DNA of 64,000 bases from Phyllobates terribilis. Its lineage: Eukaryota. A model generated the notes under the pieces. The model searched no databases. It was not told the origin of the DNA and saw only the letters and a program-made list of their open reading frames with translations. The position numbers were made by a program, and so were the translations under genes. The first letter of the stretch is position 1, and each line of letters begins with the position of its first letter. Of this stretch, positions 2,777-11,420 are shown one piece after another. The stretch lies in NCBI RefSeq assembly GCF_046119375.1, contig NW_027362768.1:145390001-145454000 (forward strand). The letters are read 5' to 3'.

Positions 2777-3910
2777 TGCTCAAAAAAATAAAGGGAACAC
2801 TCAAATAACACATCCTAGATCTGAATGAATTAAATATTCTCATTGAATACTTTGTTCTGTAGAAAGTTGAATGTGCTGACAACAAAATCACACAAAAATC
2901 ATCAATGGAAATCACATTTATTAACCAATGGAGGCCTGGATTTGGAGTCACCCCCAAAATTAAAGTGGAAAAACACACTACAGGCTGATCCAACTTTGAT
3001 GTAATGTCCTTAAAACAAGTCAAAATGAGGCTCAGTATTGTGTGTGGCCTCCACGTGCCTGTATGACCTCCATACAACGCCTGGGCATGCTCCTGATGAG
3101 GTTGCGGATGGTCTCCTGTGGGATGTCCTCCCAGACCTGGACTAAAGCATCCGCCAACTCCTGGACAGTCTGTGGTGCAACGTGACGTTGGTGGATGGAG
3201 CGAGACATAATGTCCCAGATGTGCTCAATCGGTTTCAGGTCTGGGGAACGGGCGGGCCAATCCATAGCTTCAATGCCTTCATCTTGCAGGAACTGCTGAC
3301 ACACTCCAGCCACATGAGGTCTGGCATTGTCCTACATTAGGAGGAACCCAGGGCCAACTGCACCAGCATATGGATGGTCTCACAAGGGGTCTGAGGATCT
3401 CATCTCGGTACTTAGTGGCAGTCAGGCTACCTCTGGCTCGCACATGGAGGGCTGTGCGGCCCTCCAAAAAAATGCCACCCCACACCATTACCGACCCACT
3501 GCCAAACCGGTCATGCTGAAGGATATTGCAGGTAGCAGATCGCTCTCCACAGCATCTCCAGACTCTGTCATGTCTGTCACATGTACTCAGTGTGAACCTG
3601 CTTCCATCTGTGAATAGCACAGGGCGCCAATTTGTGGCCTACTGGAGGTCATTTTGCAGGGTTCTGGCAGTGCTTCTCCTGTTCCTCCTTGCACAAAGGC
3701 GGAGGTAGCGGTCCTGCTGCTCGGTTGTTGCTCTCCTACAGCCCCCTCCACGTCTCCTGGTGTACTGGCCTCTTTCCTGGTAGCGCCTCCAGCCTCTGGA
3801 CACTACGCTGACAGACACAGCAAACCTTCTTGCCACAGCTCGCATTGATGTGCCATCCTGGATGAGCTGCACTACCTGAGCAACTTCTGTGGCTTGTAGA
3901 GTCCGTCTCA
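2774..3910 (-). mobile_element. Tc1 transposon, degenerate and truncated at its start codon
   Basis: TIR CACTGCTCAAAAAAATAAAGGGAACAC after TA. Split transposase on -: HTH region ([14 protein letters not shown]), LFTDGSRF, VMVWGGI, WPARSPDLKPIEHIWD. Frameshifts and an internal deletion near 3630. Confidence 0.9.
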
Positions 3911-4423
3911 CCTGGGAGCGCTCATCTGCCGCCTGTCTGTTGGTCTTCCTGGAGGCTCCGCAGTCACATGCTGTGACCACCCGTTCATCCAGAGACTCTC
4001 GCCTGCTCACCTGGGAGCTCACGTCTATCATCAGCCGCCACAGGTCGTACCAACCCTTTACCTAGAGACTGCCCCGGTCACTTGCCGTGACCATCTGCCC
4101 GTTCATCCAGAGACTGCCCCGGTCACTTGCCGTGACCATCTGCCCGTTCATCCAGAGACTGCCCCGGTCACTTGCCGTGACCATCTGCCCGTTCATTCAG
4201 AGACTGCCCCGGTCACTTGCCGTGACCATCAGCCCGTTCATCCAGAGACTGCCCCGGTCACTTGCCGTGACCTCCAGCCCGTTCACTCAGAGACTGTCCC
4301 GGTCACCTGCTGTGACCTCCTGCCCGTCTTCCCTGGTCGCCACCCGCTCCCTTACAAGGACTGCCCCCTTGTATAGTAGCTCAGAGGTTCCGCCTCCCAG
4401 ACCCATTACAGTTTGCTCGGGCC

Positions 4424-5374
4424 ATGGAACCCGGTGGCACCCAAGCTCCCTCGCTCTCGGACCTGTGTCATGAACTGTCCCGTCAAAGGTCCCAACAGGA
4501 GTCCATCCTGGGTCACCTGCGGAATGTCAATACTCGCCTGGACACTCTGACTGCTCCACCAGCAACCTCCGCCAGTGCCATGTCTCGCAATCCGGCAGCT
4601 CCGCTGCCCACTAATACCATGGTATCCTACCCCGGACACCGGCTTTCTGCACCTCCTCGCTTCGGAGGCGACTCCGCCCAGGCTCGGGGCTTCATAAATC
4701 AGTGCACCCTGCACTTTGAACTATTGTCCCACCAGTTTAACTCCGACCGGGCCAAAATTGTATTCATCATGTCCCATCTCACCGGGGAGGCCCTGGCCTG
4801 GCTAAATCCTCTATGGGAGAGAGGAGACCTCCTGGTGTCCAACTTGCCTGCTTTTCTCACGGCTTTCCGGAAAGTCTTCGACGAACCCGGACGGAAGACC
4901 TCATCCGCATCATCACTGCTACGCCTCCGTCAGGGAAGTCTCACCGTGGGCCAATATGCCATACGGTTCCGTACCCTTGCCTCGGAGCTGGCCTGGGATA
5001 ACGACGCTCTGGTATCCGTCTTCTGGGAGGGTCTGTCCGGCCGTATTAAAGATGAACTTGCCGGTCGGGACATTCCTACCACTCTCGATGACCTAATAAC
5101 TCTTGCCACCCGGATTGACCTACGGTTCCAGGAGCGTGCCAAAGAGGTCACCCGTGAGAGGAGGTTACCATGTCTAGCTCCTACTTTTCAGAAACCCGTC
5201 ACTCCCTCCGTCTCTACCCAGGTACACTCTCCTGAGTCTATGCAGGTTGACCAGACCAAGATGGTCAAAACCCGTCAGGACTTACGCCGTGCCGAAGGGA
5301 GCTGCTTCTTCTGTGGCAGTAAGGAGCACCGGATCCGTGCCTGCCCGGAGAGGTCGGGAAACGCCTGTGTCTAG
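4424..5374 (+). CDS. Gypsy Gag (316 aa)
   Basis: Retrotransposon-gag core (PPRFGGD...RGFINQC; LRQGSLTVGQYAIRF) and CCHC knuckle CFFCGSKEHRIRAC; ATG directly after the PBS. Confidence 0.95.
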   Translation: MEPGGTQAPSLSDLCHELSRQRSQQESILGHLRNVNTRLDTLTAPPATSASAMSRNPAAPLPTNTMVSYPGHRLSAPPRFGGDSAQARGFINQCTLHFELLSHQFNSDRAKIVFIMSHLTGEALAWLNPLWERGDLLVSNLPAFLTAFRKVFDEPGRKTSSASSLLRLRQGSLTVGQYAIRFRTLASELAWDNDALVSVFWEGLSGRIKDELAGRDIPTTLDDLITLATRIDLRFQERAKEVTRERRLPCLAPTFQKPVTPSVSTQVHSPESMQVDQTKMVKTRQDLRRAEGSCFFCGSKEHRIRACPERSGNACV

Positions 5375-8300
5375 GTTCGCTCAGAGAGGTCAACCTAGAC
5401 AAGAATAAATCCTCTCCATCTCTGCTGCTGTCAGTCTCAATCGTCTGCGTGGAGAACCGTTATTTCGAACTAGCCCAACTTGACTCTGGAGCAGCCGGGA
5501 ATCTTATTTCACAGTCCCTGGTAGAGAAATACCGCATCCCCACCAAACCTCTGGCTGTACCCTTGTCTGTTGCTGCCGTGGATGGGGGCCTCTTACCACG
5601 CCCCACCCAACTCATCACCGAATCCATTACTCTGCAGGTGGGAATGCTGCATTCTGAGAGTATCTCCTTTCATGTTCTGCCTGGACTCTCTCACGCCCTC
5701 TTGCTAGGCCTACCTTGGCTCCAGAGACATGCACCCGTGCTTGACTGGCAGACCAGAGAAGTCCTTCGCTGGGGACAGGACTGCCATAATACCTGTCTGG
5801 TTCCCGTCCATCCCGTCCGTCCTTCTCCTACCCCAGCTAATCTACCTGGACTTCCGATTCCTTATTGGTCTTATGCTGATGTCTTTAATAAAAAGGAAGC
5901 AGAGACACTACCTCCTCATAGACCATACGACTGCCCTATCGACCTGTTACCTGGTACTACTCCTCCCCGTGGGCGTATTTATCCTTTATCCGCTGCTGAG
6001 ACCTGGTCGATGTCCGAATATATTGAGGAGAATCTGGCCAGGGGATTCATCCGGAAATCTACCTCCCCGGCGGGAGCAGGCTTCTTTTTCGTCAAAAAGA
6101 AGGACGGCTCTCTCCGTCCCTGTATAGACTATAGAGGCCTTAACCAGATCACAGTGAAGAATAAGTACCCCCTTCCGCTCATTCCGGAGTTATTTGATCG
6201 TCTGAGGGGGGCTAGAATCTTCACCAAACTGGACCTCCGTGGGGCGTACAACCTGGTTCGTATCCGTCAGGGGGATGAATGGAAGACGGCATTCAACACC
6301 CGGGACGGCCACTATGAATATCTGGTAATGCCCTTTGGCCTCTGTAACGCTCCTGCCGTCTTTCAAGAGTTGGTCAATGACATCTTCCGGGACCTTCTCT
6401 ACTCCTGCGTAGTGGTGTACCTGGACGACATCTTGGTCTTCTCTCCGGATCTCCAGACTCACCGGAGGGATGTTCGTCAGGTCCTGCTCAGGCTCAGGCA
6501 GAACCATCTCTACGCTAAATATGAGAAGTGCCTCTTTGAGCAGACCTCGCTTCCGTTTCTGGGCTACATTATCTCTCAGACCGGCCTACAAATGGATCCT
6601 GAGAAACTGTCTGCCATCGAGAAATGGCCCCGACCAGAGGGATTGAAAGCTATTCAACGGTTCCTGGGCTTCGCCAACTATTACCGCCTCTTCATCCCGC
6701 ACTTCTCTTCCCGGACTGCCCCAATTTCCGCGCTCACCCGTAAGGGTACTAATCCCAAAGAGTGGCCGCCCGAAGCAGAGGAGGCCTTTCTTTCCCTAAA
6801 ACAGGCCTTCTCTTCCGCCCCGGTGCTGCATCGCCCGGACGGCAACAAGCAGTTCTTCCTGGAAGTTGACGCCTCCTCCTCTGGAGCCGGAGCGGTACTT
6901 ACTCAAAAATCATCTTCCGGGAGAATGGTAACTTGTGGCTTCTTCTCCAAACTCTTCTCCTCTTCTTAGCGCAACTATTCCATAGGAGACCGAGAGTTAT
7001 TGGCCATCAAGCTGGCGTTGGAGGAGTGGCGTTACCTACTCGAGGGGGCTCTTCATCCGGTAATAATTTACACTGACCACAAGAACTTGGCTTACCTCCA
7101 GCATGCCCAGAGACTTAACCCGCGCCAAGCCCGGTGGTCCTTGTTTTTTGCTCGCTTTGATTTTGTTCTTCATTTTCGCCCGGCTGACAAAAACGTCAAA
7201 GCAGACGCCTTGTCCCGATCCTTTCTGGTGTCCGATCTCGAGGAAGAACCTAAACATATCATCGATCCCGCCAGAGTAATGCAGGTGGCTCCCGTGAGTC
7301 TAAATCGTCTCCCTCCCGGTAAGACGTTTGTTTCAGTACCTGATCGGGAGAAGATCCTACACTGGGGCCATTCGTCTAAACTAGCTGGCCACGCCGGTCA
7401 GAAAAAGACCCTCCAGCTTATTGCCCGGCACTATTGGTGGCCTACCCTGCACAAGGACATAATAGACTTTGTTTCTGCCTGTGTGTCCTGCGCCCGCAAC
7501 AAAGTCCCGAGACATCTGCCAGCCGGACGCCTCCTTCCGCTTCCTGTACCTGCTGCCCCCTGGCAGCATATAGCAATGGACTTTATAACCGATCTCCCCG
7601 TCTCTGCCGGTTGTACGGTCATTTGGGTTGTCGCTGACCGCTTTTCCAAGATGGCTCACTTTATTCCCCTGCCAGGCCTTCCGTCTGCACCCGAGCTGGC
7701 TAAAGACTTTATCCGCCACATCTTCCGTCTTCATGGCCTGCCCCTCCACATCGTGTCGGATCGTGGGGTACAGTTCACCTCACGTTTCTGGAGAGCCACT
7801 TGTAAACTACTAGACGTCACCCTGGACTTCTCTTCCGCTTACCACCCACAGTCCAATGGTCAAGTGGAGCGGATCAATCAGAATCTGACCAGTTACCTCC
7901 GGCACTTCGTTAATGCCCACCATTCTGACTGGGTGGATCTCCTACCATGGGCCGAGTTCTCTTATAATAATCACGAGAGCGAATCCTCCTCCAAATCCCC
8001 GTTTTTTGTAGTCTTTGGTCAGCATCCTCGGATTCCTTTTCCTGTCTCCACCTCTGTGGACAACCCGGCTGCGGAATCTCTCGTTAGCAAATTTTCCTCC
8101 ATATGGGAGAGTACCCGGTCCGCACTCCTTCTGTCATCCGAGCGTATGAAAAGACACGCTGACAAAAAACGCCTGGATCCTCCACAATTTCGTCCAGGAG
8201 ATAAAGTCTGGCTCTCATCTAAATATGTTCGACTCAAGAAACCTTCTTACAAGTTAGGGCCTCGGTTCATCGGTCCTCTGGAGGTCATCAGTCAGATCAA

Positions 8301-8628
8301 CCCGGTGGCCTATAAATTGAAACTCCCGGCCAACTTACGGATCCCTAACTCCTTCCATGTATCTCTCCTCAAACCCGTGGTGCTTAACTCTTTTTCCAAG
8401 TCTACAGGTACGCCTCCTGCTCCGGTTTCTGCTGAGGACGAGTTTGAGGTAGAGAACATTCTTGCCACCAAAAGGGTAAGAGGAAAGACCTTTTTTCTGG
8501 TAGATTGGAAGGGGTTTGGTCCTGAGGAGAGAACGTGGGAGCCCCGGGAGAACATCCATGCCCCTCTCATCCTAGCTAAATTTCTATCTGGCCTAAAAAA
8601 GGGGGGCCTAAAGGGGGGGGTACTGTAG
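5356..8628 (+). pseudogene. Gypsy Pol (protease-RT-RNaseH-integrase-chromodomain), -1 frame to gag, one premature TAG at 6967-6969
   Basis: LDSGA protease, YLDD RT, VDASS RNase H, H..H/C..C zinc finger, DDE core, GPL (GPY/F-like), chromodomain FEVENIL...FLVDWKGFGPEERTWEP. ORFs 5449-6969 and 7000-8628 are in the same frame. Confidence 0.93.
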
Positions 8629-9845
8629 TGCCGGCGTCCCTGCCCTCTGCTAGGCAGGGACGCTGTTCCCCTCACCGCTCTGCTCCGTGCCCGGCGTCCC
8701 TCTCCCGCTCTGCTGGCAGCGCGCGCTCCTTCCCGGCCACTGTGCTTAGGGCGCGCGCGCGCGCCCTCCCTCCCTCTTAAAGGGGCCGCGCGCGCCGTCC
8801 TAAGGAGTCCCCGGCCAATGGCCGGAGGACTTTACCATATATAAGGCACCTCCTCCAAAATGGAGGTGCCCGAGCAATGTTGTTGCACTGTTCACTACTC
8901 TGCTTCAGCCCTCAGGTCCCGTTGCCAGTTACCTGCCAGTTACCTGCCAGATTCCTGCCTGATTATCTGCTACCTGCCTGCTAGTCTGAGGTCCGACGGT
9001 CTGCCTTACTACTCCTGTCAGTCTGTCTAAGGACCAGCCTGCCCGCTCACCTGGGAGCGCACATCAGCCACCTGCCTGCTTGCCTGAGGTCCGACGGTCT
9101 GCCTTCCAACTTCTGTCAGTCTGTCTATGGACCAGCTTGCCCGCTCACCTGGGAGCACACACCTGCTACCTGCCTGCTAGTCTACCTGGAGGCTCCGCCG
9201 TCACGTGCTGTGACCACCTGCCTGTCCAGTGACTCCTGCTCGCTCACCTGGGAGCGCTCATCTGCTGCCTGTCTGCTAGCCTACCTGGAGGCTCTGCCGT
9301 CACGTGCTGTGACCACCCGCCTGTCCAGAGACTTCTGCCCGCTCACCTGGGAGCGCTCATCTGCCGCCTGTCTGTTGGTCTTCCTGGAGGCTCCGCCGTC
9401 ACATGCTGTGACCACCCGTTCATCCAGAGACTCTCGCCTGCTCACCTGGGAGCTCACGTCTATCATCAGCCGCCACAGGTCGTACCAACCCTTTACCTAG
9501 AGACTGCCCCGGTCACTTGCCGTGACCATCTGCCCGTTCATCCAGAGACTGCCCCGGTCACTTGCCGTGACCATCAGCCCGTTCATTCAGAGACTGCCCC
9601 GGTCACTTGCCGTGACCATCTGCCCGTTCATTCAGAGACTGCCCTGGTCACTTGTCGTGACCATCAGCCCGTTCATCTAGAGACTGCCCCGGTCACTTGC
9701 CGTGACCTCCAGCCCGTTCACTCAGAGACTGTCCCGGTCACCTGCTGTGACCTCCTGCCCGTCTTCCCTGGTCGCCACCCGCTCCCTTACAAGGACTGCC
9801 CCCTTGTATAGTAGCTCAGAGGTTCCGCCTCCCAGACCCGTTACA
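8624..9845 (+). repeat. 3' LTR (1222 bp) with CCAAT 8815-8819, TATATAA 8838-8844 and internal tandem arrays
   Basis: Begins TGTAG after PPT+TAC and ends TTACA; contains ~100-bp and 45-bp internal repeats. Confidence 0.93.
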
Positions 9846-9989: not shown

Positions 9990-10980
9990 GTCAGTATCTG
10001 GTGTGACCACTATTTGCCTCACACAGTGCAACACATCTCTTTCGCATAGAGTTGATCAGGTTGTTGATTGTGGTCTGTGGAATGTTGGTCCACTCCTCTT
10101 CAATGGCTGTGCAAAGTTGCTGGATATTGGCAGGAACTTGAACATGCTGTCATATCTGCTGATCCCGGGCATCCCAAACATGCTCAGTGGGTGACATGTC
10201 CAGTGAGTATGCTCGCCAAGCAAGAACTGAGATGTTTTCAGCTTCCAGAAATTGTGTACAGATCCTTGCATCATGGGGACGTGCATTATCATGCTGCAAT
10301 AAGGTGATGGTCGTGAATGATTGGCACAACAGTGGGTCTCGGGATCTATCTCTGTGCATTCAAAATGGCATCAAACCTGTGTTCGCTGGCTATAACATAT
10401 GCCTGCCCACACTATAACCCCACTGCAACCATGGGCCACTCGATTCACAACATTGACATCAGCAAACCGCTCACCCACACGAAAACATATACACAGTCTG
10501 CTATCTGCCCTGTACAGTGAAAACCAGTATTCATCCGTGAAGAGAACCCCTGTCATGCATCAGGATTCGATCTGGCAGTCCTGTGCTTTTCTGTCAGCTT
10601 CTCTGTCTGCTGAGCCACAAGAGATCCTGTTGGCATCTGGGTGTTAATTACCTTTTGCCTTTTGTCCACTCCTTTCTTACAGCAGGTGTTCTCCATTTGC
10701 TATCTAGCCTAGCCTATCACACTGCAGGTTCTTCTATTTAAACCTCACTCCTGCTTCTGTTCTCTGCTGGTGATAGAGTTTCATTTAGATGAAAACTACG
10801 AGCATGCAGATGAGCTTGCCTGAGATGGTGTCTGACAGTTTGTGCAGAAATTCTTTGGTTATGCAAACCGATAGTTGAAGCAGCTGTCCGGGTGGCTGGT
10901 GTTAGACGATTATGGAGGTGAAGATGCTGGATGTTGAGGTCCAAGACTGGTGTGGATACACATGGTCTGCGGTTGTGAGG
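9990..10980 (-). mobile_element. Degenerate Tc1 transposase remnant, interrupted at ~10551-10790 by an LTR-like fragment
   Basis: Minus-strand VLFTDEY.FSLYRAD, VIVWAGI, LQHDNARPH, W.AYSLDMSPTEHVWD. The interruption starts TGTCATG. Confidence 0.8.
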
Positions 10981-11420
10981 CTGCACACCGTCGTTGCCAA
11001 ATGGGCTGCACACCGCCGTTGCCAAAAGGGCTGCACACCGCCGATGCCAAAAGGGCAGCACGCAGCCGATGCCAAAAGGGCTGCACACCGCCGATGCCAA
11101 AAGGGCTGCACACCGCCGATGCCAAAAGGGCTGCACACCGCTGATGCCAACAGGGCTGCACACCGCCTGATGTCAAAAGGGCTACACACCGCCGATGCCA
11201 AGAGGGCTGCACACCGCCAATGCCAAAAGGGCTGCACGCAGCCGATGCCGAAAGGGCTGCACGCAGCCGATGCCAAAAGGGTTGCACACCTGATGCAAAA
11301 GGGGCTGCACACCGCCGATGCCAAAGAGCTGCACACCGCCTGATGTGAAAAAGGCTGCCCACCGCGTGATGCAAAGGGGGCTGCACACTGCCGATGTCAA
11401 AATGACTGTACACCGCCGCT
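10978..11420. repeat. 25-bp minisatellite, ~17 copies
   Basis: Unit CAAAAGGGCTGCACACCGCCGATGC. Confidence 0.9.

Follow-up and report, generated by a model that had tools for sequence, protein, structure and literature searches.

The fission-yeast retrotransposon Tf1 primes reverse transcription with the beginning of its own RNA: the first 11 bases pair with its primer-binding site (PBS); cleavage by RNase H falls between bases 11 and 12 (PMC7175516). As described for Tf1, the ends of its cDNA contain a copy of the PBS together with untemplated additions (PMC11042837), and priming requires two flanking helices, which complete a three-duplex 'pretzel' around the PBS (10.1101/2022.12.06.519325). 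Tf1 and Tf2 of Schizosaccharomyces pombe, Tj1 and Tosmo1-3 are characterized as chromodomain Ty3/gypsy elements in which the PBS is complementary to the predicted RNA 5' end, a description that also fits the family studied here, designated as family A. Self-priming has been reported as a common feature of the Tf1/sushi group, vertebrate elements included (10.1101/2022.12.06.519325; PMC6317226; PMC4600332). It is experimentally proven in Tf1, whereas for vertebrate elements it is presented in this literature as an inference, and for family A it is proposed here from sequence. Self-priming has also been predicted from sequence for 83% of moss Tcn1 chromoviruses and 89% of TAR copia elements (PMC6317226 supplement); these are plant lineages, and their likeness to family A consists of the predicted self-priming, given in a table without sequences.

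Among frogs, the commonest LTR type is reported to be Amn-san (PMC4131045), and a term search of that paper found the PBS nowhere mentioned. The V-clade, to which we compare family A together with Amn-san by description only, resembles it in host range, the presence of a chromodomain, a frameshifted gag-pol and proposed self-priming. PMC3601003 forms part of the same comparison literature. Among the titles and abstracts of a limited literature collection, none concerned amphibian covariation or a cap footprint beside a self-primed PBS. Butler et al. 2001 may already show amphibian cases of self-priming.

The window (the whole 64-kb stretch of Phyllobates terribilis DNA analyzed here) carries a chromovirus for which an earlier note proposed self-priming. 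In this study, we re-read the element, compared it with chromovirus families gathered by family searches, and characterized the bases next to the PBS in family A.

Results

Structure and state of the window element

The window element has gag followed by the protease-RT-RNase H-integrase order and a C-terminal chromodomain (Table 1); its Pfam domain matches include Chromo (E 2e-11) and SH3_Tf2-1, and the gag knuckle reads C-X2-C-X4-H-X4-C. A CCHC knuckle combined with a -1 frameshift at the gag-pol junction is also found in Tf1/sushi chromoviruses outside fission yeast, but is absent from Tf1 as described (10.1101/2022.12.06.519325). Related families (L086-L094 and L123-L133), unlike the frameshifted family A, encode gag and pol in a single reading frame, about 1500 codons long. 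Family B (L023-L054) is about 80% identical to family A in RT but only about 50% in integrase, which points to a mosaic pol.

Table 1. Features of the chromovirus in the window (positions in window coordinates)
Feature	Position	Strand	Remarks
5' LTR remnant	3907..4410	+	last 504 of 1222 bp; ends CA at 4409-4410; promoter and +1 missing; from blastn to 3' LTR
U5 arm GGTTCCG	4387..4393	+	may form a 7-bp U5-leader helix with 4425-4431 (shuffle P 0.14)
Spacer GT, LTR end to PBS	4411..4412	+	2 nt
PBS TTGCTCGGGC, not tRNA-type	4413..4422	+
Position 11 = C	4423	+	putative partner or copy of RNA cap
Position 12 = A of gag ATG	4424	+	recurrent A-to-C hot spot in family A
gag	4424..5374	+	capsid, DUF4939, CCHC knuckle
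pol	5323..8628	+	protease, RT, RNase H, integrase, SH3, chromodomain; in-frame stop 6967-6969
Slippery site G GGA AAC	5356..5362	+	pol in -1 frame; putative frameshifting
Polypurine tract	8610..8620	+	followed by TAC, then TG of 3' LTR
3' LTR, TG...CA	8624..9845	+	1222 bp; internal repeats of 98/99 bp and 45 bp
TATA box TATATAA	8838..8844	+
9-bp inverted repeat, TATA to +3	8845..8870	+	overlaps first three primer bases
Predicted self-primer +1..+10 GCCCGAGCAA	8868..8877	+	3' LTR copy

The 5' LTR remnant differs from the 3' LTR at 7 positions in 504 bp, and the in-frame stop of pol falls within RNase H. Because the 5' LTR lacks the promoter and +1 and pol is interrupted, the window copy is unable to make the RNA described below: it belongs to an abundant chromovirus family of the Tf1/sushi type but is itself dead, and the claim of self-priming therefore rests on family A, not on this copy. 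Tc1-like transposon remains flank the element (3032-3906 and about 9990-10900), and its junction with this DNA at 3907 may involve a short CTCA microhomology. The window also contains minisatellites with a 31-bp unit (1627-2111) and a 25-bp unit (10920-11420). Neither AATAAA nor ATTAAA occurs in the family A LTR (8624-9845), and both are likewise absent in five of six other representatives.

Family A contributes at least 16,820 exact 31-nt LTR-PBS junctions to the 10.6 Gb assembly. All 20 close copies fetched had the primer site in both LTRs, and 13 of the 14 copies with both flanks read were bordered by 5-bp target duplications, the remaining one being a tandem. Tandem elements with one common LTR (L007, and paired matches about 5 kb apart) resemble the integrase-independent tandems described for Tf1 (PMC11042837). 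The closest named Gag relatives of family A are from frogs, and a search with a distant Gag mostly gave back family A. An RT tree, which contained no sushi-ichi or Amn reference sequences, separated the families studied here from plant-type elements in the same assembly.

Complementarity between the PBS and the LTR

The earlier note had placed a PBS without the TGG start after the terminal CA and a GT spacer, and its exact complement in the LTR, 30 nt after the first T of TATATAA; these positions proved correct on re-reading. The complement lies only in the 3' LTR; the note had overlooked that the 5' LTR of this copy is without a primer site. TTGCTCGGGC and GCCCGAGCAA each occur once on the + strand of the window, and the pairing is exactly 10 nt long: T at 8867 does not pair with C at 4423, nor T at 8878 with T at 4412. 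The proposed loop of ~980 nt agrees with the distance from +1 to the PBS on the 3' LTR scale (980 nt), but it is not a fixed length, since the loop between primer site and PBS ranges from about 200 to 1180 nt across families.

When the first 20 nt after the LTR were compared with shuffled LTRs, a complement of 10 nt or longer appeared in 5 of 300 shuffles for L001 and in 0-10 of 300 for 13 representatives. A match in one element alone is thus weak evidence, and the weight is carried by the position relative to the TATA box and by covariation. The ends AC/TG (8624)...CA/GT of the window copy were as previously read. Their symmetry is special to family A and was rejected as a general feature, because other families read AA/TG...CA/GT, GG, GA or AG; the 2-nt spacer is the only end feature common to all groups. 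A TGG start of the PBS was found at none of 110 junctions.

Covariation across chromovirus families

We gathered 134 chromovirus loci by family searches, a number that excludes two loci that were too short and six elements of plant type, and drew up junction patterns after the sequences had been viewed. A recognizable LTR-PBS junction was present in 110 loci and was not recognized in the other 24. At 89 of the 110 junctions the 10-nt PBS, always two bases after CA, had its exact complement in an LTR; the five decayed old copies of group E had none. Ten distinct PBS 10-mers were each matched by their own LTR, in elements whose RT identity to the window element is about 65-99%, so that the covariation between PBS and +1..+10 that the earlier note had suggested looking for was indeed found. 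Among the 13 representatives, exact PBS matches fell only on LTRs carrying the same PBS. These 13 had been selected because they match exactly, and each has a TATA-like box 27-30 nt upstream of the primer site.

Single-base compensations occur within families A and B. In family B, a T/A variation runs in step on both sides (8 and 3 exact copies). The variant PBS TAGCTCGGGC has 98 matches in the genome, and in a blind test of 12 copies picked by this PBS only, nine had the compensated primer, two near-duplicates were uncompensated and one had no site. An additional change in a single-copy variant was matched in both PBS and LTR, and an exact primer was present in 50 of 60 further family A copies chosen by junction alone. 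Taken together, covariation and the position 27-30 nt after a TATA-like box support the self-priming proposed in the earlier note, which we regard as very probable.

Computed RNA folds

Folds computed for the real 5' regions gave the primer:PBS helix a probability of 0.6-1.0 in 8 of 14 cases and 0.00 in the other 6, in which local hairpins win, and in 4 of 14 cases the duplex was clearly better than shuffles, of which no more than 2 of 300 equaled it. A U5-leader helix of 5-11 bp is visible in most families and is individually weak (shuffle P 0.002-0.998), and a helix upstream of the PBS was inconsistent between computed folds. As RNA, the 9-bp inverted repeat of the window 3' LTR has about -19.7 kcal/mol. 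A hairpin from the TATA box to +3 was rejected as a general feature, as it is strong in family A, weaker in B and absent in C and D; in the model, it would exist only in the 3' R copy and could hide the first three primer bases of that copy.

A footprint next to the PBS

Position 11, the base following the ten PBS bases, was C in all copies of groups A, B, C, D and F (105 of 105), while group E had it in 0 of 5. The LTR base at -1 is T or C and unable to pair with this C. Conservation ends sharply after position 11, and position 12 and the spacer differ between families. Since the primer bases +1/+2 (GC) are equally invariant, the C at position 11 may be plain inheritance. Change counts did not show a constraint on position 11 after insertion (114 versus a mean of 151 per position), and C-to-A was about twice background there (47 of 100 among the matches listed).

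Position 12 of family A had 345 variants versus 16,820 exact junctions, and A-to-C accounted for 81 of 100 among the matches listed. This change affects about 1.6% of copies; its background, taken from gag in 59 copies, is 0.03% (private) or 0.19% (total). At the same base, A-to-G (0.20%) and A-to-T (0.18%) do not rise above background. To place the 21 A-to-C copies on a tree of 80 copies takes 18 changes, similar to shuffled labels, and strong branches force at least 14 of these changes; the change is thus recurrent, and descent from one subfamily was ruled out. A CC[A] context effect was also ruled out, because A-to-C was seen in none of the copies at 18 of 19 gag CC[A] columns and the other column represents one clade. 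Among position-13 variants, 10 of 100 among the matches listed also had C at position 12 (1.6 expected), and six read CCC. In family B, A-to-C at position 12 was found in 5 of 374. The hot spot rates come from families A and B, as family D2, in which LTR -2 is not G, has only 13 copies, too few for this purpose.

Positions 11 and 12 were both changed in only 4 copies, 3 of which show the letters expected of an upstream-extended primer. Primers extended upstream of +1 are therefore rare, and copying of positions 11-12 from LTR -1/-2 was rejected as the main cause. The gag ATG (4424-4426) starts two bases after the PBS, so that the start codon borders on the priming duplex and is lost when the hot spot base changes. 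The footprint at positions 11-12 appears to be new, with the depth of the amphibian covariation as a further added value. Together with the matched changes across ten PBS variants, this error footprint would make the sequence evidence for vertebrate self-priming unusually strong.

Plant-type elements and tRNA genes

The plant-type elements of the same assembly served as a control, and five of the six had a tRNA-Met-type PBS, labeled by a motif that we take to be that of tRNA-Met. These elements (L057-L062, on small unplaced contigs C3xxx-C7xxx) are Tekay/Del-like chromoviruses with long LTRs, and are likely plant DNA contaminating the assembly. The tRNA-Met PBS of plant chromoviruses (Tekay, Reina, CRM and Galadriel) is absent from family A and was seen here only in the plant-type elements. 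One family B PBS variant, taken together with its spacer (GTATCAGAGC), is identical over ten bases to the tRNA-Met PBS of plants, either as a vestige or by chance. Genes for tRNA-Lys(UUU) form large tandem arrays in the assembly, one at C1:816.9-817.9 Mb and another at C11:574-575.8 Mb.

Discussion

Self-priming, as proposed for family A, is not a new type of mechanism, since it has been described for the Tf1/sushi group as a whole, vertebrates included, and the remark in the earlier note that it had been proposed for Sushi-type chromoviruses agrees with the available literature on Tf1 and the sushi group. We hold with high confidence that in family A the primer of reverse transcription would be the element's own RNA, through its first ten, capped bases, and not a tRNA. 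Family A differs from Tf1 in several respects: the primer is 10 nt long compared with 11 nt in Tf1, the PBS follows CA after a 2-nt spacer while the Tf1 motif is described as lying directly after the LTR (PMC11042837), and the loop reaches up to about 1.2 kb, with tandem repeats.

In the proposed mechanism, transcription would start at the G of 8868, and bases +1..+10 would anneal to the PBS across the loop of 200-1180 nt, or from a second packaged RNA. RNase H would cut after +10, by analogy with the cut after base 11 in Tf1, and minus-strand DNA would begin in the 2-nt spacer; at a later step, integrase would trim this spacer. The primer would remain attached and be copied into the plus strand, so that the PBS is rewritten from the primer; matched changes in PBS and LTR could thus arise without two chance mutations. 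At the 5' end of the primer, RT would add a C opposite the cap, giving position 11, and at times one or two further untemplated C's, which in 1-2% of insertions would end up fixed at positions 12-13. The footprint at positions 11-12 would likely put the primer 5' end at 8868.

In template-switch chemistry with MMLV RT, the first added C is templated by the RNA cap. MMLV RT is reported to extend its product with C once it has passed the 5' end of its RNA template (PMC3877366); this was seen in vitro with another enzyme, whereas the trace in family A lies in germline insertions. We propose, at about even odds, that in vertebrate self-priming chromoviruses the cap acts as the eleventh letter of the primer, that RT copies it into the C of position 11, and that the germline hot spot at position 12 records an extra untemplated C. 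Self-priming may also be right with the cap uninvolved, if the C was simply inherited, or was the favored first untemplated base of RT and became fixed once. That account, which we rate somewhat below an even chance, would fit the equally invariant GC at +1/+2, the lack of the C in group E, the C preference of MMLV RT in untemplated addition (PMC3877366) and a C-to-A rate at position 11 only about twice background. It does not sit easily with a conservation that ends abruptly past position 11, families differing from one another at position 12 and in the spacer, or with an error peak at position 12 and not at 11. The same ten bases could also come from a second RNA in trans or from the R copy at the RNA 3' end, which the six folds unfavorable to the cis helix would allow and for which L174/L175, near-duplicates representing one event, offer an example in which a variant PBS is combined with a common-type LTR and gag, the outcome expected if another RNA had supplied the primer. 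This single case may be a point mutation, however, and a primer from the 3' end would carry U3 bases, giving A then C at positions 11-12, which was seen in 3 of about 17,000 copies; the 5' end of a second RNA may still prime in trans, and we consider the two sources together unlikely.

Outside self-priming, a tRNA or tRNA fragment could be the primer, with the LTR complement serving only a structural or regulatory role. The screen for tRNA genes recovered only those of tRNA-Lys(UUU) and so covered one isotype, and the resemblance of GTATCAGAGC in family B to the plant tRNA-Met PBS also leaves room for this view. Nevertheless, TGG begins none of the PBS sequences, ten of which covary with the LTR, down to a single copy, and the 3' end of tRNA-Lys has a same-sense likeness to the family A PBS and is therefore unable to pair with it, so that we regard a tRNA primer as very improbable. 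Chance complementarity, which the 5 of 300 shuffles reaching 10 nt would permit for one element, is refuted by covariation, as the same offset, length and TATA distance recur with ten different sequences, and its probability is negligible.

If the cap indeed serves as the eleventh letter of the primer, the genome alone would map the transcription start site and prove that the element's own capped 5' end is the primer, and this would explain how PBS and primer stay matched. We infer that a very large share of the LTR elements in this genome is without a tRNA-fragment target at the PBS. Under the same condition, 1-2% of new family A copies would be born without a gag start codon, and DNA alone would suffice to read off where transcription starts in any high-copy LTR family and how that family is primed.
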